Positions 3,299 through 17,794 of a DNA stretch of 64,000 bases are shown here, piece after piece. Location of the stretch: positions 83,904 through 147,903 of the forward strand of contig JAJPJQ010000038.1 of the NCBI GenBank assembly GCA_021324155.1. Direction: 5' to 3'. A program made the position numbers and the translations under genes. The DNA is from Pseudomonadota bacterium (GTDB lineage: Bacteria > Desulfobacterota > Binatia > UBA9968). The notes beneath the pieces were generated by a model. That model saw only the letters and a program-made list of their open reading frames with translations. It did not search any database and was not told where the DNA came from. Every line of letters starts with the position of its first letter. The first letter of the stretch is position 1.

Positions 3299-4294
3299 AT
3301 GACAACCACTCCAAAAATCGATTACGAAAAGATCAAAGGCGTCCACAAGGTCCCGCTGGAAGAGCTCTACACCTCCGGCCACCGCACCTGCCAGGGCTGC
3401 GAGTCCGCGACGACCATGCGGGGCTTCATCAAGGCCTCGGGACCGCGCACGATCGTAACCGGCGCGACCGGCTGCATGTACGTCGCCAATACTTCGTACC
3501 TGACCACGCCGTGGATCGTGCCGTGGATGCACACCCAGCTCGGTGCGGGCGGGGCGTCCGCGGTCGGCATGGCGGCGGGCGTCCGCGCGCTCCAGCGCAA
3601 GGGCAAGATCAAGCAGGAGAAGATTAACATCATCAACTTCTCCGGCGATCTCGGCGCGGGCGACATGGGCATCGGCGGAATCTCGGGCGCGCTCCAGAGC
3701 GACTACGACCTGCTGATCATCATGTACGACAACGAGTCGGCGGCGAACACCGATATCCAGGCGACCGGACTCTCGATCTACGGCGCGCAGACGACGTTCA
3801 CGCCGCCCGGATCGAAGCACCGCATCATGCAGCGGCGCTGGAAGAAGAACGTCGCCGGCATGCTCGCGGTCGGCCACCCGACTTGCAAGTACGTCGCCAC
3901 CGCCTGCGCGACGTTTCCGCCGACCGACTATCTCAACAAGACGCGCAAGGCGCTCAGCATCGGCGGGCCGACGTTTATCCATACGTACGATCCATGCCCG
4001 AAGGGCTGGGACTATCACCCGCGCTATTCGAACGAGCTGGGCGAACTGGGCATCAAGTGCGGCATCTACCCGCTCTACGAGATCGTCGAAGGCAACGTCA
4101 TTTACACCTGGGACGCGCGGAAATCGGGCAAGGGCCGCATTCCGGTGAAGGAGTTCCTGCAGCGCCAGGGACGCTTCGAGCATCTGATCCAAGAGGACAT
4201 CGATTATATCCAGAAGGGCGTCGACGAGATGTGGGAAGAGTGGGAAATTCCCGGCGTCGCGCCGCTCAAGGGGATTTTGAAAGCCAGAATCTAG
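3299..4294 (+). CDS. 2-oxoacid:ferredoxin oxidoreductase beta subunit (TPP-binding)
   Basis: 331 aa. The motif GDLGAGDMGIGGIS is of the TPP/Mg-binding GDG type, and the N-terminal Cys cluster (CQGCESATT) is typical of OFOR beta. RBS TAAGGAGGA upstream. Confidence 0.85.
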   Translation: MTTTPKIDYEKIKGVHKVPLEELYTSGHRTCQGCESATTMRGFIKASGPRTIVTGATGCMYVANTSYLTTPWIVPWMHTQLGAGGASAVGMAAGVRALQRKGKIKQEKINIINFSGDLGAGDMGIGGISGALQSDYDLLIIMYDNESAANTDIQATGLSIYGAQTTFTPPGSKHRIMQRRWKKNVAGMLAVGHPTCKYVATACATFPPTDYLNKTRKALSIGGPTFIHTYDPCPKGWDYHPRYSNELGELGIKCGIYPLYEIVEGNVIYTWDARKSGKGRIPVKEFLQRQGRFEHLIQEDIDYIQKGVDEMWEEWEIPGVAPLKGILKARI

Positions 4295-4320
4295 CCCATT
4301 CCGTTCCGAATAGAGATACA

Positions 4321-4352
4321 AAAGAGGCCCTCACAAGAGGGCCTCTTTTTTT
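4321..4352 (+). terminator. Rho-independent terminator
   Basis: GAGGCCCT-cacaag-AGGGCCTC hairpin followed by a T7 run, immediately after the OFOR beta stop. Confidence 0.8.
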
Positions 4353-4547
4353 GCCTGCACCTTGGTCACAAGGCGTTAGGGCAAATGTGACCTATTGACT
4401 TACGATTAAGGTAAAGATTCCCGTCGAATCCGTGTAACACCCGATACTCGTTAAAACGCGCGCCACTGTATTATAGCCGCTATTCACCGGCCGGGTCTGC
4501 CCCCAGACGCTCCACCGGCCAACGACATCAACGGGGTAAGGAGCGCC

Positions 4548-6344
4548 ATGAACTACTTCCAACCCTATTCCCTTCCGGCCGATCAGGCGGTCCTCGCCGC
4601 GTGGGATTCGCAGCTCGCGGAGCTGGCGGAATGTCCGGCGCTCGTCACCGCGCTGGCGAAGCACCGCGAGATGCTCCCGCGCTTCGCGGAATCTTACATG
4701 AGACTCCGCGCGCTGCCGCGCGGCACGCGGCGGGCGCTGCAAAGAAAGCTCGCACGAGCGCGCGAGTTAATTTCAATTCAACCGGAGTGGCAGAGAAAGC
4801 TCGCCGGCTCACTCGCCGGCGCGGCGCTACTGCTCGCGCTCGCGCAGAGCGCGTCCGCGACGACGATGACCGTCACGACGAATGTGCCGGACATCAAAAG
4901 AGACAAGAAATGTTCACTGATCGAAGCGATTATCAATGCAAAGAAGCATAGGCGAGTTCACACCGACTGTCCCGCCGGGAGCGGAACAGACACGATTGTG
5001 CTTCCCGGCAATACGGTTTTCACATTCAACAAGATGGAACCCAGTTACATTCAAAGCTACAACGGTTTACCGACTGTCACCAGCATCATCACGATCGAAG
5101 GGAACGGCAGCACGCTCAGAAGAAATAGCAAATCGCAATTTGGCCTCGTCGATGTGAATAGCACTGGAAATTTAACGCTTAAGAATCTGACGATAAGTAA
5201 TTGGCAAGATCAGAATTTCAGCGCGATAACGAACCGCGGAAAACTGACAATCGTCAGTAGTACTATCTCCGGCAACATGGGATATGAAGGCGGCGCGATA
5301 TACAACTCATCCGGCGCCATTGCGGCGATCGAGAATAGCACAATTTCTGGCAACAGTGCCCGTCGTGGTGGAGGGATTCATAATTACCGCGGTACCATAA
5401 TCATAAACAACAGCTCAATTTCCCAAAACACAGCGGCATTTTCAGGCGGAGGCATAAGGAATGTCGGCGGTCACGCCGAAATCAATAACAGCATTATAAG
5501 CGAGAATCGCGCAATAGCACCGAAATATTACTCCGGCCATGGGGGTGGTATCGACAATATCGGTACCGCTGCGTATCTGCTTATCACATACAGTTCAATT
5601 GCTGAGAATCTCGCCAGTGGAGGCATCAGAAGTACGAATAAATATCGGCCGAGGCCAGCTGGTGAAGGCGGCGGAATATACAATGGCTTCCGATCGACCG
5701 TGACGATCAGCAATAGCTCAATCTTTAGCAATACCGCGGAGACCCCAGTCAACGGCTACATTGCGAGGGGCGGTGGGATACTTAGTAGTGCCGGTGGAGA
5801 TCTGCGCATTTCAAATTCTACGGTATCCGGAAACACTGCGATCAGCGGTGTCCCGGCAAAAGCTTACGGCGGCGGGATTTTCAGCTGCGTTTTTCAAATT
5901 ACGAGCAGCACAATTGCGGACAACAGAGCAAATGTTGGCGGCGGAATCTGGAGTTGTGAAAGTTCTTCACGCCTAGAGTTAGCCCGCAGTATTATTTCCG
6001 GAAATCAAGCTGACAAGGGAGCCGAGGTCCATAACGGCTTCTCTAGTTCGTCGAAACAACACCTTGCCGTAAACAATTTTAATCTGTTTGGAAACAATGG
6101 CGATCCCGGCGTTGTAGGTGTTACTCCAGGAGCATCCGACATCGTGCCCGGCTCCGGGATAATGCTCGATGACATCATTGCGCCGCTCGCAGACAACGGC
6201 GGCCCCACTCTAACGCATGCTCTTGCGGCCGGCAGCCTCGCCATCGATGCCGCGCCGGTCGACTCCGATTGTCCAGCTACCGATCAGCGCGCAACACCGC
6301 GACCGCAAGGCGGCGGCTGCGATATCGGTGCGTTTGAGAAGTAG
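4548..6344 (+). CDS. Surface/secreted right-handed parallel beta-helix repeat protein with CSLREA-type motif and C-terminal choice-of-anchor-Q-like domain. It carries an unusual ~85-aa N-terminal domain followed by a hydrophobic segment (paralog 1)
   Basis: 598 aa. RBS AAGGAG. Segments in order: N-domain (MNYFQPYSLPADQAVLAAWDSQLAEL...), hydrophobic LAGSLAGAALLLALAQSASA, CSLIEAI (CSLREA-like) motif, many NSTISGN/NSSISxN beta-helix repeats, and a C-terminal LADNGGPTLTHAL...CPATDQRATPRPQGGGCDIGAFE tail. Confidence 0.8.
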   Translation: MNYFQPYSLPADQAVLAAWDSQLAELAECPALVTALAKHREMLPRFAESYMRLRALPRGTRRALQRKLARARELISIQPEWQRKLAGSLAGAALLLALAQSASATTMTVTTNVPDIKRDKKCSLIEAIINAKKHRRVHTDCPAGSGTDTIVLPGNTVFTFNKMEPSYIQSYNGLPTVTSIITIEGNGSTLRRNSKSQFGLVDVNSTGNLTLKNLTISNWQDQNFSAITNRGKLTIVSSTISGNMGYEGGAIYNSSGAIAAIENSTISGNSARRGGGIHNYRGTIIINNSSISQNTAAFSGGGIRNVGGHAEINNSIISENRAIAPKYYSGHGGGIDNIGTAAYLLITYSSIAENLASGGIRSTNKYRPRPAGEGGGIYNGFRSTVTISNSSIFSNTAETPVNGYIARGGGILSSAGGDLRISNSTVSGNTAISGVPAKAYGGGIFSCVFQITSSTIADNRANVGGGIWSCESSSRLELARSIISGNQADKGAEVHNGFSSSSKQHLAVNNFNLFGNNGDPGVVGVTPGASDIVPGSGIMLDDIIAPLADNGGPTLTHALAAGSLAIDAAPVDSDCPATDQRATPRPQGGGCDIGAFEK

Positions 6345-6363
6345 CGTCCTGGGGGAGAGGGGT

Positions 6364-8457
6364 ATGTATTATCACAGTGCTTATCGACTGCCTGCCGGCG
6401 AGACAATTATTACAGCCTGGGAATCGGCACTAGCTGACCTGCGAAACAGCGCGCCGTCTTTAAATCTGCCGGCTGAAACACCTGATGTCTTTCCTCGGTT
6501 CGCTCAAACCTATGTAAAACTATGCAACTTACCTCGAAAAAAGCGAAGAGAGATCCAAAGGGATATTCTCCATACCGGACCGTTGGCAAAAATCCAACTC
6601 AAATCACAACGTCAACTTGCATCATCTTTGGCGGCAGTCGCTCTATTGCTTGCTTTAGCTCAACCCGCCCCCGCAGCAAACATTGCCGTCAATACGAACA
6701 CACCCGCAATTAATGATGGAGACGGTAAATGTTCGCTCATCGAGGCAATCATTAATGCCAACGACGATGCCTCGACTCATCCCGATTGCGCAAAGGGCGA
6801 AGGAGCGGATGTCATTGTATTGCCCGCTGCGAGTATACACGTCGTCGAAGCTGCTTACGGCAATTATCAGGGTGAAACCGCGCTGCCGGTGATAACGAGC
6901 GAGATTACTATCGAGGGGAATAACAGCACGGTGACCCGCCACGTGAGCGAGCCATTGTTTCGTATTTTAGCTGTGCGTAGTGTCGGAAGACTTACACTAC
7001 AAAATTTAACGGTAAGCGGCGGAGCTCAAAACCATGGCGGCGGGATATTCAACAGTGGCACGCTAGCGATTACTAACAGCATTATCACAGGGAACAAAGC
7101 ACAGTATTTTGGTGGAGGTATATTCAATTCCTCCGACGGAGAATTGACAATTGAGACTAGCAGCCTGTCCAAGAATATCGCCAACATGGATGGTGGCGGT
7201 CTATTGGACTGTTACGGTAGTTTCAAGATACAGAACAGTACTATCTCAGGTAACTTCAGTCAGCGTGGTGGCGGCATCCATAAGTTTGATAATCAAATAG
7301 AATACGTCACCCCCACATCTAACTTCCCAAAGTGCAGCGTAACCTCGCACACGGGACTGATTGTTAACAGCACAATTTACGGCAATACCTCATCCGTCGG
7401 CGGCGGCATAGCCAATGGTGGCAAAATAACCATCATCAACAGCACAATCAGCAATAATGTAGCGCTGGCGCAAGGCGGCGGAATCATAAATTATAAACCC
7501 TTCCAAGGTGCTCCCAGTTATCTTTTCGTAGAAAGCAGCACGATTTCTCAGAACATTGCCGGTGACGAGCATTTCGGCTGGGGTGGCGGCATTATGAATC
7601 AATACAATGGCTATCTTTATCTAAGCCGCAGCATCGTCTCAGGTAACAAGGCGCTCACAGGGCCAGAAATAAAAACGGCTAGTGTGAACGATGTTGTTTA
7701 TATCGATGATTTTAATCTTCTTGGAAATAACGGCGACAGCGGACTGTACAATGTATATGTCGGCTACACGGATATTGTCCCTAAACAAAGCCTCAACAAA
7801 ATTCTCGGCCCCCTCAAAAATAACGGCGGCCCTACACTGACTCATGCTTTAGTTCCTGGCAGCCCCGCGTTGGACGCTGCGCCGGTCGATGCGAACTGCC
7901 CGGCGACCGATGGCCGCGGTGTTGCCCGCCCGCAAGGGTCTGCATGCGATATGGGCGCCGTTGAGGGTACTAGTTTGGCACCGGCGCCCCACCCGACCGG
8001 GCACAACTTCGTCGTAAGCTCCGTCAAGGCGCCGAAAACCATCAAGAACGGCGGCGGCACTGCTCCCGTAGCGGTCACGATTCGGAACGCAGGCAATCAA
8101 AACGAGATACTGAGCGATGCGTCCGTGCTCGGCGACGGCGCGACCACGGGCCTCGTCCGCCTGGCGATCGACGTCACCGATACCGACGGCGAGCAATGCC
8201 AGCCTGCGACTGTCTCTTTAGACGGCTCCAAGAATGGGAAGCTCTTCAGCAAGGGAGTGAAGGTCTTGTCCGGCGGCGCATCGTTGACGGTGAATTTTCT
8301 CGTGACGTACCGTTGCGACGCGCCGATGAACAAGCGAAATCCGGAAGCGGGCGACTACCGTAACAGCGCCTCGATATTTCCCGACGAGCTCGACGGCATT
8401 TCCGATTCTAACGCGAGCAGCACAATGGTCGGCGCCGCGACCAAGGTGACGCCATGA
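6364..8457 (+). CDS. Beta-helix / CSLREA / choice-of-anchor-Q-like protein with an extra C-terminal CARDB-like Ig domain (paralog 2, diverged)
   Basis: 697 aa from an ATG with RBS GGGGAGAGGGG. It has the same architecture and a conserved N-domain (MYYHSAYRLPAGETIITAWESALADL...PRFAQTYVKL). An extra ~180-aa C-terminal tail (VSSVKAPKTIKNGGGTAPVAVTIRNAGN...) is CARDB-like. Confidence 0.75.
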   Translation: MYYHSAYRLPAGETIITAWESALADLRNSAPSLNLPAETPDVFPRFAQTYVKLCNLPRKKRREIQRDILHTGPLAKIQLKSQRQLASSLAAVALLLALAQPAPAANIAVNTNTPAINDGDGKCSLIEAIINANDDASTHPDCAKGEGADVIVLPAASIHVVEAAYGNYQGETALPVITSEITIEGNNSTVTRHVSEPLFRILAVRSVGRLTLQNLTVSGGAQNHGGGIFNSGTLAITNSIITGNKAQYFGGGIFNSSDGELTIETSSLSKNIANMDGGGLLDCYGSFKIQNSTISGNFSQRGGGIHKFDNQIEYVTPTSNFPKCSVTSHTGLIVNSTIYGNTSSVGGGIANGGKITIINSTISNNVALAQGGGIINYKPFQGAPSYLFVESSTISQNIAGDEHFGWGGGIMNQYNGYLYLSRSIVSGNKALTGPEIKTASVNDVVYIDDFNLLGNNGDSGLYNVYVGYTDIVPKQSLNKILGPLKNNGGPTLTHALVPGSPALDAAPVDANCPATDGRGVARPQGSACDMGAVEGTSLAPAPHPTGHNFVVSSVKAPKTIKNGGGTAPVAVTIRNAGNQNEILSDASVLGDGATTGLVRLAIDVTDTDGEQCQPATVSLDGSKNGKLFSKGVKVLSGGASLTVNFLVTYRCDAPMNKRNPEAGDYRNSASIFPDELDGISDSNASSTMVGAATKVTP

Positions 8458-10000
8458 ACTACTTCCAGCCCTACTCTCTTCCGGCCGATCAGGCGGTCCT
8501 CGCCGCGTGGGATTCGCAGCTCGCCGAGTTAGCGGACTGCCCTGCTTTCGTCAATGCCCTCGCGAAGCAGCGCGAGTTGTTCCCGCGCTTCGCGGCGCAC
8601 CACGCGCGCCTGCGGGTGCTGCAGCGCGGCACGCGCAGAGCGCTGCAAAGAAAGCTCGGCGAGCGCATGAGCTGATTTCAATTCAACCTGAATCGCAGAG
8701 AAAGCTCGCCGGCTCACTCGCCGGCGCGGCGCTGCTCCTCGCGCTCGCGCAAAGCGCGAGCGCGGCGACAATCAACGTAACGACAAACATCCCCGACATC
8801 AACGACGGCGACGGCAAGTGCTCGCTGATCGAGGCGATCGTTAATGCGAACGACGACGCAGCGACGCATCCCGACTGCGTCACGGGAGACGGGGCGGACA
8901 CGATCGTGCTGCCGAAGAAAGCTAAATTCAATTTTTTCGTAGCAACGATAAAGACACCGATTACAATTCAGGGCAACGACAGTACCTTCGTTCGAACAAC
9001 ATTGACGGTAAACGCTTCGGGAGATTTCAACGTAGATGGGATCAGCGTACTAGGTGGCAAGCGTTGCTTTATAAACGTTGGCGTCCTGACGATCGAGAAC
9101 AGCAAAATTTCAGGCTGTGCATTTGCCAGCGCAGGTGCAGTTTTCAACGGAGGGACTGCCACTATTTCCAACAGTGTTATTTCAGGAAACAAAGCGTATG
9201 GGAATGGCGAATATTCCTGGACAGGAACCGGCGGAGCAGCAATAAATAGCGGCACAATGACGATCCTGAACAGCGAGATATCCGACAACGCGGCGTACGG
9301 GAATGATTTTGGCAGCGCCATTGGCGGCGGCATCGATAATCAGGCTGGTACTCTTATCATTCAAAATAGCACCATAGCTAGGAATCTGGCTATTTCCCAT
9401 TCTCATGATGCTATTGGCGGTGGCATAAGCAATTCGGGCCGTTCATATTTGAGTGTTCGAAACAGCACAATTTCAGGCAACGAAGTGTCCAGAGGGAAGA
9501 GCCGCGGCGGAGGTGTTAACAATTGGGGATATCTTCACGTAGAAAATAGCACGATTACTGGGAATTCAGCCTCTACAGGAGGCGGCGTCGTCAGTTTCAG
9601 TTACGGCCGACCGAACCTCGTCTACCTACGCGAGAATGTTTTCGCTAACAACGAAGCTATCGTTGGTCGGGAAATTTCTACAGATGCCGTAATACAATAC
9701 GATGTTCTGAATTTATTGGGTATTAACGGTGATTCAGGTGTCTACGGCTTCACGCCTGGACCAACCGACATAGTGCCAAACGTTGCGGTTAAGAAAATCC
9801 TTGCTTCCCTAAAAAATAACGGCGGCTCTACCCTCACCCACGCTCTCGTCAAGGGCAGCCCCGCCATCGATGCCGCTCCCGTCGATGCGAATTGTCCGGC
9901 AACCGATCAGCGCGGCGTGGCGCGGCCGCAGGGAGGCGGCTGCGACATCGGCGCGGTGGAGTACACGGGCAAAACCTCGAAGAAGAACAAGAATAATTAG
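8454..10000 (+). pseudogene. Third beta-helix/CSLREA paralog, disrupted by a frameshift between the N-terminal domain and the hydrophobic segment
   Basis: The ATG at 8454 overlaps the paralog-2 stop (ATGA). A 73-codon ORF (8454-8675) encodes an N-domain near-identical to paralog 1. The rest of the protein (ELISIQPESQRKLAGSLAGA...CDIGAVEYTG) continues in another frame, ORF 8507-10000. The region is 1 nt shorter than the paralog-1 counterpart between AAAGAAAGCTCG and ATTTCAATTCAACC. Confidence 0.6.
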
Positions 10001-10049
10001 GCGTCTTGACTGGCTTGGTTTAGCTGCGGATTTCTCGTAAAATCGAGGC

Positions 10050-10703
10050 GTGAAGCTACCTCTCTCTCTTATCCTTGCGGCATCCATCCTCTCACTGTTT
10101 GCCGCACCGCATGTTTTCGCCGAGCCGCGCTACACGGAAAAGCAGATCGAGATGTTCTCGTCGTACGTCGGTAAGACGTATTGGGTGACGGACGAGAAGA
10201 GCCAGCAGCCGACGTTCTACTCGGCGCCCAAGACCAACGCGCCGACGTTTCAACCGGCGGCCAAAGAGGGCTTCGAGATCAAAGAAGTCGTCGAGAAGAC
10301 GAGCGACAATCCGTTTTACCGCGTCGCCTTCACGTCCGGCAAGGAAGGTTTCATCCCGGTCACCGCCTTCATGGAGCGGCTCAACGGCGCGTTTACCGCG
10401 CTCGATCCCGAGCGCGACGCCAAGGCGAAGAGCGCGAAAGTGACCGCCGACGAGCAGAAGCGGCGCGACTATATCCGCCAGCAGAAGTGGCCCCAGCACG
10501 TCAAGGAAGCCGCGCTCAGGAAAGAGCCCGTCATCGGCATGAGCAAACAGGAGGCGACCGCGGTGCTGGGCAAGCCCAAAAACATCGTGCGGCTCAAAAG
10601 CGGCAACGCCGGCAGCGAGCTGATGGGGCGGCAGGAACAGTGGCTCTACGACAACGGCCAGACACTCACGTTCAACAACGGGATACTCGTCAGGATCCAG
10701 TAA
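10050..10703 (+). CDS. Hypothetical secreted protein (signal peptide; C-terminal small beta-domain possibly BamE/SmpA-OmlA-like)
   Basis: 217 aa. GTG start 4 nt after GAGG. Signal peptide MKLPLSLILAASILSLFAAPHVFA-E. No confident family assignment. Confidence 0.55.
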   Translation: MKLPLSLILAASILSLFAAPHVFAEPRYTEKQIEMFSSYVGKTYWVTDEKSQQPTFYSAPKTNAPTFQPAAKEGFEIKEVVEKTSDNPFYRVAFTSGKEGFIPVTAFMERLNGAFTALDPERDAKAKSAKVTADEQKRRDYIRQQKWPQHVKEAALRKEPVIGMSKQEATAVLGKPKNIVRLKSGNAGSELMGRQEQWLYDNGQTLTFNNGILVRIQ

Positions 10704-15397: not shown

Positions 15398-15892
15398 ATG
15401 AGCGTCTTGCGAAGAAGATCGGATCTCGAGGACCTGTTAACGCCCCGGCGCAGTCACCGCGGCGTGAAAATCGCCGCCGTGTGCCTGGGGCTTTTGATCG
15501 CGCTGATGTGGTACTTTCATTCGCCGCGCGCGCCCGAGGCGCCGAGCCCGGCGCCGGTCGCTGAGCCCTCGGCAGCGCCGCCGAAGCCGGCGCCGCCGCC
15601 GCCAACCGCGCCGCCGGCTTCGACGCCAGAACCGGTTCGAGAACCCGCTCCCGAGCCGCCGCCGGCGCCGGCCGCGAAAATCATACCCGAGGCGGTCAAA
15701 CCGCCGCCGGCGAAGACGGCTTCGGAACCGCTGCAAAAAAAATCGCCGCCGGCGTCAACCGAGACGCGCCAGAAAGCGCCGCCGCCGAAGTCCGTGCCCA
15801 AGCCTGCGCCGGCAAAAACACCCGCGGCGCCGGCGGCGGAATCCCCGCCGCCGGTGCGCGAATCGGACCGACCCGACAGCGATGCGGGTTGA
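15398..15892 (+). CDS. Membrane-anchored proline/alanine-rich low-complexity protein
   Basis: Internal ATG MSVLRRRSD. One TM (IAAVCLGLLIALMWYF) then ~130 aa of PAPxPP-type low complexity. No C-terminal globular domain. Confidence 0.45.
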   Translation: MSVLRRRSDLEDLLTPRRSHRGVKIAAVCLGLLIALMWYFHSPRAPEAPSPAPVAEPSAAPPKPAPPPPTAPPASTPEPVREPAPEPPPAPAAKIIPEAVKPPPAKTASEPLQKKSPPASTETRQKAPPPKSVPKPAPAKTPAAPAAESPPPVRESDRPDSDAG

Positions 15893-16509: not shown

Positions 16510-17794
16510 TTATTTCTCGAATGCGCCGATGTCGCAGCCGCCGCCCTGAGGGCGCGTCGTGCCGCGCTGATCGGTCGCGGGACAGTCCGCGTCGGCCGGC
16601 GCTGCGTCGATCGCCGGGCTGCCCGGATTGAGCGCATGGGTGAGCGTCGCCCCGCCGTTGTCGGCGAGAGGAGCGAGGATGCTACCGATCATCACCCCTG
16701 TTGTGGGAACGATGTCGGAAACGTCAGGAGTAAATCCGACCACGCCCGGATCATTGTTGACGCCGAAGACATTTAACTGGTCATCCGTAATCATTATATA
16801 ATTGTGGAGAGGTACGTCGGAATATATCTCGGCACCCGAAAAACGCTTGATTCCCGGAGACGATGCTGCGGGTGATAGCGAGTTGGGTGAACGCGTGTGA
16901 GCCTCCGACTCCTCCGGTTTTATCGTTTCAAATCCCGCCCCCCTCGGTCGCGCTATTGCCGGTGATGGTGCTGTTCTCGATCGTGAGATAGTGTTGATTG
17001 GTTACGCCGCCGCCATACCCATAGCCGCCTTTTCCCGGTATTGATTGGTTGCCGGAGATCGTACTGTTCAAAATTTTTGTAAAACCGCCGTTAAAGAAAC
17101 CACCGCCATGGCCGTTTTTGTTCGATCCTCCGATTGCCGAATTGCCGGAAATGGTGCTGTTCTCGACTAGGAGGCTCGTGCCGAAAGTGTCAATTGCACC
17201 GCCGAAGCCGCTAGCACCGGTTCCACTCGTAGCTTTGTTAGCTGAAATCGTACTGTTCCGAATGATGGCATCCCCGCCGTTCAGCGCGATGGCTCCTCCG
17301 ACGCCAGTTCCGCCCTTAAAACCGGTAGCGCTATTTACGGAAACGATACTATCGACAATGCCAATGTAGCCACCCCGGCCGTAAATTGCGCCGCCGGCGG
17401 CTGAGATGTTAGACATTCCGCCTCTGACTTTATTACCGGAGAGGGTGCTGTTTTTGATTGTAACAGTGCCGTCGAAATTACTAATTGACCCGCCATAAAT
17501 CGCCAGATTGCCGGAGATCGTGCTGTTATTAATACTGATCGTTCCAGTATTTAATATTGCTCCGCCATCGAGAGCCGTGTTGCCGAAAATACTGCTATGA
17601 TCAATAATGAAGAAGCCAGTAGACGCGTTGTAGATCGCCCGACCATCGACCGTGTCGGAATTGCCCGATACCATAGTATTAAAAAGTGTAGTGTTACCGC
17701 CGATATCATCCCATGTAAAACATTGCCGGTTTACCGCAATAACGTTTCCGCTAATCAACAAGACCTTATATTGATGGAGAATGATGCCGGTCAC
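16510..17794 (-). pseudogene. Degenerate fourth copy of the beta-helix/choice-of-anchor-Q family: N-terminally truncated, internal TGA stop and frameshift
   Basis: ORFs 16928-17794 (beta-helix repeats NSTISGN...) and 16510-16794 (LADNGGATLTHAL...CPATDQRGTTRPQGGGCDIGAFEK) are separated by an in-frame TGA at 16928-16930 and a 1-nt frame change near 16795-16800. There is no N-domain, hydrophobic segment or CSLREA motif. Confidence 0.65.

Follow-up and report, generated by a model that had tools for sequence, protein, structure and literature searches.

The window, by which we mean the whole stretch of 64,000 nucleotides that was analyzed, contains an array of three tandem genes on the forward strand and the remnant of a fourth copy on the reverse strand (Table 1). 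Right-handed beta-helix or Pmp-like repeats are found in all three tandem copies. Paralog 1 illustrates the common layout, which consists of a leader domain, a linker, a hydrophobic segment with an AxA motif, a beta-helix passenger, and a C-terminal choice-of-anchor Q domain. Paralog 3, the last gene of the array, is divided between two reading frames.

Table 1. Positions of the array genes, their leaders, and the lesion of paralog 3 within the window
Feature	Position	Strand	Remarks
Paralog 1, intact, 598 aa	4548..6344	+	NF041518 77.8 bits; leader profile 114 bits
Leader of paralog 1	4548-4760	+	
Paralog 2, intact, 697 aa	6364..8457	+	Same architecture as paralog 1; divergent leader
Leader of paralog 2	6364-6575	+	
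Paralog 3, 5' ORF	8454..8675	+	73 aa, leader domain alone; ends GERMS-stop
Leader of paralog 3	8454-8659	+	
Frameshift site	8658..8660	+	Gly codon 70 minus its third base (alignments A1 and A6)
Premature TGA, frame 0	8673..8675	+	Four codons past the lesion
Paralog 3, 3' part, -1 frame	8660..10000	+	Linker, signal-like segment, beta-helix passenger, choice-of-anchor Q domain
Hydrophobic segment LAGSLAGAALLLALAQSASA	8705..8764	+	Putative signal-peptidase site after ASA; now out of frame with the leader
Fourth paralog, decayed remnant	16510..17794	-	tblastn HSPs in two frames; without leader and without signal segment

The NF041518 model (curated cutoff of 25 bits) matches paralogs 1, 2, and 3 with 77.8, 85.8, and 84.3 bits, respectively, and paralog 3 with its frame repaired in silico also falls within the range of 78-86 bits. 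In paralog 3, the Beta_helix family (PF13229) is matched with 27.3 bits, which is above its cutoff, the choice-of-anchor Q domain occupies approximately positions 9800-9964, and the leader matches the leader profile with 109 bits over columns 1-70. The decayed fourth copy is composed of a 288-aa beta-helix ORF (16928-17794) and a 94-aa choice-of-anchor Q ORF (16510-16794) that lie in different frames. The GC content at third codon positions (GC3) of the passengers is 0.55-0.59 (4863-6344, 6679-8457, 8768-10000, and 16928-17794), compared with 0.84-0.92 for the neighbouring housekeeping genes and 0.79-0.84 for the leaders of paralogs 1 and 3. The foreign-looking codon usage is confined to the cassette body. 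The start codon of paralog 3 overlaps the stop codon of paralog 2 (ATGA at 8454-8457) and is preceded, 5 nt upstream, by the Shine-Dalgarno-like site AAGGTG, and the 73-aa leader peptide is therefore probably still made, its translation being coupled to the paralog 2 stop.

An earlier, sequence-only reading of this locus had described the 5' ORF of paralog 3 as a 73-aa N-terminal domain followed by a stop, with the rest of the protein open in a different frame. This description was confirmed, as the second frame, which is -1 relative to ORF 8454-8675, remains open from 8507 to 10000 with no internal stops. The shortening by one nucleotide relative to paralog 1 was also reproduced: the interval from AAAGAAAGCTCG to ATTTCAATTCAACC measures 16 nt in paralog 3, against 17 nt in paralog 1 (DNA alignment A1), where CTCG-GCGAGCGCATGAG is aligned with CTCGCACGAGCGCGCGAG and one base is missing. 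Frame 0 encodes the conserved QRKLG up to position 8659, and frame -1 encodes RAHELISIQP from position 8660 onward, matching RARELISIQP of paralog 1 and RTRELLSIQP of the syntenic ortholog L018 (see below); this places the loss at the third position of Gly codon 70. The codons at the lesion are CTC GG/C GAG in the window (the slash marks the break), CTC GCA CGA in paralog 1, and CTC GGG CGC in the ortholog. Two figures of the sequence-only reading had to be revised. The insertion of one G restores a single ORF of 515 aa, whose sole stop is terminal, instead of 514 aa, and the leader, previously called near identical to that of paralog 1, has a protein identity to it of 81-82%. The lesion had also been placed exactly at the junction between the N-terminal domain and the hydrophobic segment. 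It does fall at the end of the conserved leader, in profile column 70 of 72, where the variable linker starts, but the hydrophobic segment begins only 15 codons further downstream. This segment is conserved in the family alignment A2, and according to the AxA rule it is likely to be cleaved after ASA.

In L018 (JGI metagenome contig Ga0134124_10094931), paralog 3 is followed in synteny by the gene for a 217-aa protein and then by TctA, and it forms one uninterrupted ORF over the junction, with CTCGGGCGC in place of CTCGGCGAG in the window (alignment A6). The mature parts of the two proteins are 95% identical. Since this syntenic ortholog is intact, the window allele is derived. Over these four codons, CTC GGG CGC ACG in the ortholog corresponds to CTC GG- CGA GCG in the window, and the loss of one G from the GGG run appears to be the most economical event. 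The sequence-only reading had noted no obvious homopolymer at the site, where the window has only GG and the intact ortholog has GGG. Across the family, 13 of the 13 complete leader-bearing copies (from nine Binatia loci and the window) are fused in frame to a product of 460-700 aa, and the arrangement of a leader ORF with a separately framed passenger is conserved in none of the loci examined.

The same allele was recovered independently of the window. The 73-aa ORF is present on five contigs, and the three that were read (NCBI JBAIGY010000035.1, ENA ERZ27279688 (k141), and ENA ERZ23500680) come from three separate assemblies and do not differ in a single base across the site. JBAIGY is an Illumina 2x150 assembly from the Centralia coal-fire soil (PMC11237453). 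Over 18.7 kb, the sole difference between the window and JBAIGY010000035.1 is an A8/A9 run at 15736-15743, which means that the two assemblies are not copies of one another, and yet they agree at the lesion. The A8/A9 difference, which may reflect either true variation in run length or a homopolymer error, is located inside a Pro/Ala-rich ORF (15314/15398-15892) and alters its reading frame. The proposal that the split is an assembly artefact, and that the gene in fact reads GGG and is one ORF of 515 aa, draws on the local repeat structure. The leader region repeats that of paralog 1 in diverged form, and the 170 nt around the site that are specific to paralog 3 are bounded by two stretches, of 47 and 39 nt, that match paralog 1 exactly. 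These exact repeats cause the k=31 Logan contigs to break at approximately 8507 and 8704, and a 792-bp ENA contig ends 4 nt past the stop. However, repeats of this length are too short to generate a paralog chimera at k=141, the data are of the Illumina type, and the site contains no long homopolymer. Together with the agreement of three assemblies that are not mutual copies, this makes an artefact very unlikely, although a minority GGG allele may exist in the population. A pattern scan of the JGI metagenome contigs, a collection from which the locus itself is absent, returned zero matches for alleles with 2-6 nt at the site. The option of a pseudogenising indel, also listed in the sequence-only reading, is in turn supported by the intact syntenic ortholog and by the identical allele in separate assemblies.

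A further option was a mechanism that separates the leader from the exported part as a small protein of its own. Such a functional split would produce a free 73-aa cytoplasmic leader along with the exported part, the latter arising either by a low-level -1 slip of tRNA-Lys on A_AAG (8651-8654) or by termination and reinitiation at CTG 8672 or ATT 8675. Several features are compatible with it: a ribosome slipping on the A_AAG tetramer, which is in frame 0 and precedes the lesion by six nucleotides, would make a 515-aa product; the CTGATT sequence overlaps the stop, and the product of reinitiation would start with (M)ISIQPESQRKLAGSLAGAALLLALAQSASA and carry a conventional Sec-type signal peptide; and the downstream frame is fully open with a dN/dS of 0.16. 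However, A_AAG occurs equally in intact paralog 1 and in the L018 ortholog, where it simply encodes the conserved QRK. The shift point has no X XXY YYZ heptamer, the zero frame being CTG CAA AGA AAG CTC GGC GAG. The search for a stimulatory RNA fold gave z = -1.31 for 8640-8740, close to the -1.24 of the corresponding part of intact paralog 1, and z = +0.26 for 8655-8700. The downstream RNA thus folds no better than shuffled sequence, and there is no stimulator. A conserved RNA or DNA hairpin at the indel site, an idea prompted by inverted repeats in paralog 1 and in two decayed loci (L015 and L106) and by the R/S/G residues (NGC codons) before Glu, was considered and rejected, since the consensus fold of 16 intact homologs has an energy of -1.6 kcal/mol and an unfavourable covariation term. 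An Rfam search of positions 4000-10500 with E up to 1 returned only two chance-level matches.

Independent initiation of the exported part fared no better. A check for an internal start, also proposed in the sequence-only reading, revealed no ATG, GTG, or TTG start for the exported part in frame -1 between 8507 and 8767, the only candidates being the near-cognates CTG and ATT. The GTG at 8507 corresponds to the invariant Ala-Trp codon pair and is found in paralog 1 as well. In the passenger frame, the stop TGA overlaps CTG 8672 and abuts ATT 8675, and no Shine-Dalgarno-like sequence precedes either codon. Promoter-like sites are no commoner than in shuffled sequence. In addition, the paralog 3 leader has His in a column occupied by Tyr in 162 of 166 sequences and Gln in a column occupied by Pro in 158 of 162, that is, at positions conserved to about 98%. 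These two replacements argue against a retained function of the stand-alone leader, being the opposite of what would be expected for it. With the split also conserved in no homolog, we regard a functional split as very improbable. The readings differ in the peptide that would cover the junction, which would be LGRAHELISIQPESQR for a restored frame and KARRAHELISIQ for a -1 slip at A_AAG, and reinitiation would give the N-terminal sequence ISIQPESQR.

Decay and copy-number change are common in this family, the fourth copy of the window being one example. The syntenic relative L013 keeps the end of paralog 2, and a deletion has left a 70-aa leader stub at the paralog 3 position. A closer relative (L006) has one gene at the syntenic site, compared with three in the window, while tandem leader-bearing genes number four in L007 and two in L009. 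Three further loci, L015 (4001-4620), L016 (4001-4620), and L106 (3001-4600), have between two and four indels each, among them deletions of 4 and 14 nt, and all three are long-read-style MAG contigs. Many short stub proteins in the databases likewise consist of a leader and an out-of-frame tail. The clustering of first lesions near columns 53-70 in all four broken genome loci was examined as a sign of a hot spot and dismissed, because it is mostly due to the multi-lesion L015 and L016 loci and to ascertainment.

The position of the lesion raises the possibility that the boundary between leader and linker is a recurrent indel hot spot that heritably toggles single cassettes on and off in the population, in the manner of a contingency locus. 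The first indel falls at the same codon after RRxLQR(K/R)L in the window (-1), L015 (+2), and L106 (+1). This coincidence hints, if only weakly, at a hot spot within the GC-rich stretch encoding LARSxEL and not at a purely random hit, and in several stub proteins the break is no more than a few codons away from the lesion codon. The local DNA is GC-rich and has short inverted repeats, and the array lies among variable, mosaic surface-protein cassettes. On the other hand, slipped-strand variation is associated with homopolymers or short tandem repeats of roughly seven units or more, and the window site has no tandem repeat and nothing longer than GG; even a GGG tract is much shorter than those known to slip at useful rates. 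GG is also the allele on all three contigs that were read, out of the five with the ORF, and no conserved structure is present at the site. L015 and L106 are frameshifted again downstream, and are either dead copies or error-rich long-read contigs, as opposed to switches. The stubs are biased towards early breaks by the way they were found, and a rough count by hand places about 5 of 25 stub breaks in a span of four codons, compared with about two expected. A switch is thus decidedly unlikely. If it did exist, it would represent a contingency-type system without a classical simple-sequence repeat, in tandem arrays of variable, horizontally exchanged beta-helix surface proteins, and the free 73-residue leader might act in the cytoplasm. 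The position at the domain boundary, previously viewed as suggestive, is mostly explained by a linker that is length-variable, GC-rich, and tolerant of indels.

We used the L018 ortholog to estimate divergence and selection in the separated part of paralog 3. The downstream 441 codons contain no stops and have a dN/dS of 0.16 (dS 0.153, dN 0.0245), indicating that the lesion is young relative to the divergence from L018. An intact, conserved downstream frame is compatible with a very recent lesion and likewise with continued use. The synonymous divergence is uneven along the gene. Counted from 8672, dS is 0.47 in the first 100 codons and 0.01-0.08 in codons 101-400 (8972-9871 in the window), while the flanking genes show values of 0.82 (217-aa gene) and 0.40 (TctA). 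Codons 101-400 contain 11 synonymous and 9 nonsynonymous differences, which are small counts, and most of the divergence is in the first 100 codons. This mosaic, with low dS in codons 101-400 and high dS in the flanks, suggests that the passenger was recently exchanged between diverged genomes, in which case too few substitutions would have accumulated since then for relaxed selection to be detected. The high amino acid divergence of the paralog 3 leader from L018 was considered as a sign of relaxed selection and set aside, since dS is also high there (0.46, compared with 0.15 for the whole aligned downstream part). A leader dS of 0.46 points to a different recombination history, and only the two changes at near-invariant sites were kept as evidence.

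Taken together, we consider it likely that paralog 3 carries a genuine and recent single-base frameshift, and that it is a null allele or a young pseudogene. The lesion is an ordinary gene-inactivating mutation and not a special mechanism. Gly codon 70, at the boundary between leader and linker, is short of a single base, most likely a G from a GGG run. Translation from ATG 8454, presumably coupled to the paralog 2 stop, therefore ends at the TGA and gives a 73-residue leader-only peptide, and the linker, the signal-like segment, the passenger, and the choice-of-anchor Q domain are stranded in the -1 frame without a canonical start. Little or no exported protein would be expected from paralog 3. 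The lesion is probably young, given that the downstream frame is still open throughout and well conserved, and it probably represents one event in the birth and death of a tandemly duplicated and fast-turning-over family of exported beta-helix proteins in Candidatus Binatia. For annotation purposes, the region 8454-10000 is better flagged as one frameshifted gene than as two genes. The frameshift itself is of little weight, and the leader family and the mosaic passenger cassettes with low GC3 are of greater interest.

The leader comprises the first ~70 residues and follows the pattern MNYF..AAWDSQ..F.RFA..Y..LRALPRGxRRALQRKLA. It has no match among Pfam or NCBIfam models. Searched against 1.84 billion proteins, the leader profile identifies 558 cluster representatives at E <= 1e-3, and in this family the leader almost always begins at residue 1. 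Of 168 representatives that were sampled, 162 have their leader start within 20 residues of the N-terminus, and 77 are at least 300 aa long. Almost all genome matches to the leader are from Candidatus Binatia MAGs (the query of the genome scan was alignment A3, as alignment A2 is too diverse). The AlphaFold2 model consists of a small helical bundle followed by a hydrophobic helix (pLDDT 78), and the fold has no match in the PDB (best E = 4). A literature search on choice-of-anchor or Binatia found nothing on the leader-bearing family.

The relation between the leader and the hydrophobic segment varies within the family. In the window paralogs, 17 extra residues separate the RR from the h-region, while in distant members the PRxxRRxLQRK motif runs straight into the hydrophobic segment and AxA (by eye, these read TRRALQKKFAxSLAGAALLLAL...AxA). 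The linker length varies widely across the leader family. The direct repeat GAAAGCTCG, found at 8650-8658 and 8700-8708 (at 4744 and 4795 in paralog 1), encodes a duplicated QRKLA motif that flanks the 17-residue linker, and relatives without the linker (RRALQRKLAxSLAG...) look like the undisrupted form. The leader and RR of the distant members thus look like an unusually long Tat-type signal. The TAT_signal (PF10518) and TIGR01409 profiles have zero matches to the proteins even at E up to 10. An unannotated leader in about 560 clusters, positioned ahead of a twin-arginine-like motif and a signal-like segment, points to a possible signal for export or sorting that is specific to this lineage of an uncultured phylum. 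The broken paralog 3 provides a natural allele composed of the leader only and a leaderless passenger, and this allele could be used for studying the leader.

Comparison with known systems places these observations in a broader context. All three paralogs resemble the NF041518 proteins, as does paralog 3 those with a Beta_helix (PF13229) match above cutoff, and they differ from the NF041518 definition in their ~70-residue N-terminal leader, which is unmentioned there. The overlapping ORFs in frames 0 and -1, with A_AAG just upstream of the frame change, are reminiscent of programmed -1 frameshifting in dnaX and in the IS3-family transposases. Unlike these cases, the window locus has neither an X XXY YYZ heptamer nor a downstream stimulator, and no intact homolog, the ortholog included, shows the arrangement.

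Some of the polymorphic membrane protein (pmp) genes of Chlamydia are interrupted by frameshifts. The array is similar to them in being a multi-copy family of exported proteins with beta-helix and Pmp-repeat-like sequences, in which one copy is truncated by a single-base frameshift next to intact neighbours and decayed copies are common. The Chlam_PMP match is weak in paralog 1 and strong in a relative (P0127). In contrast to the pmp genes, the site in the window is without a long poly-G or other simple repeat, the host is a free-living soil member of Binatia, and the proteins have a choice-of-anchor Q domain and a long N-terminal leader in place of an autotransporter barrel.

Long or extended signal peptides are known from the twin-arginine (Tat) pathway and from the ESPR extension of autotransporters. 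The leader of the window proteins differs from these in its lack of a Tat profile match, in the much longer extension (~60 residues before the RR), and in the helical bundle that the AlphaFold2 model assigns to it. It shares with them a conserved N-terminal extension that is followed by PRGxRRxLQRK, a hydrophobic stretch, and AxA, and the similarity to Tat signals is closest in the distant family members, where the RR motif and the hydrophobic stretch are directly adjacent.
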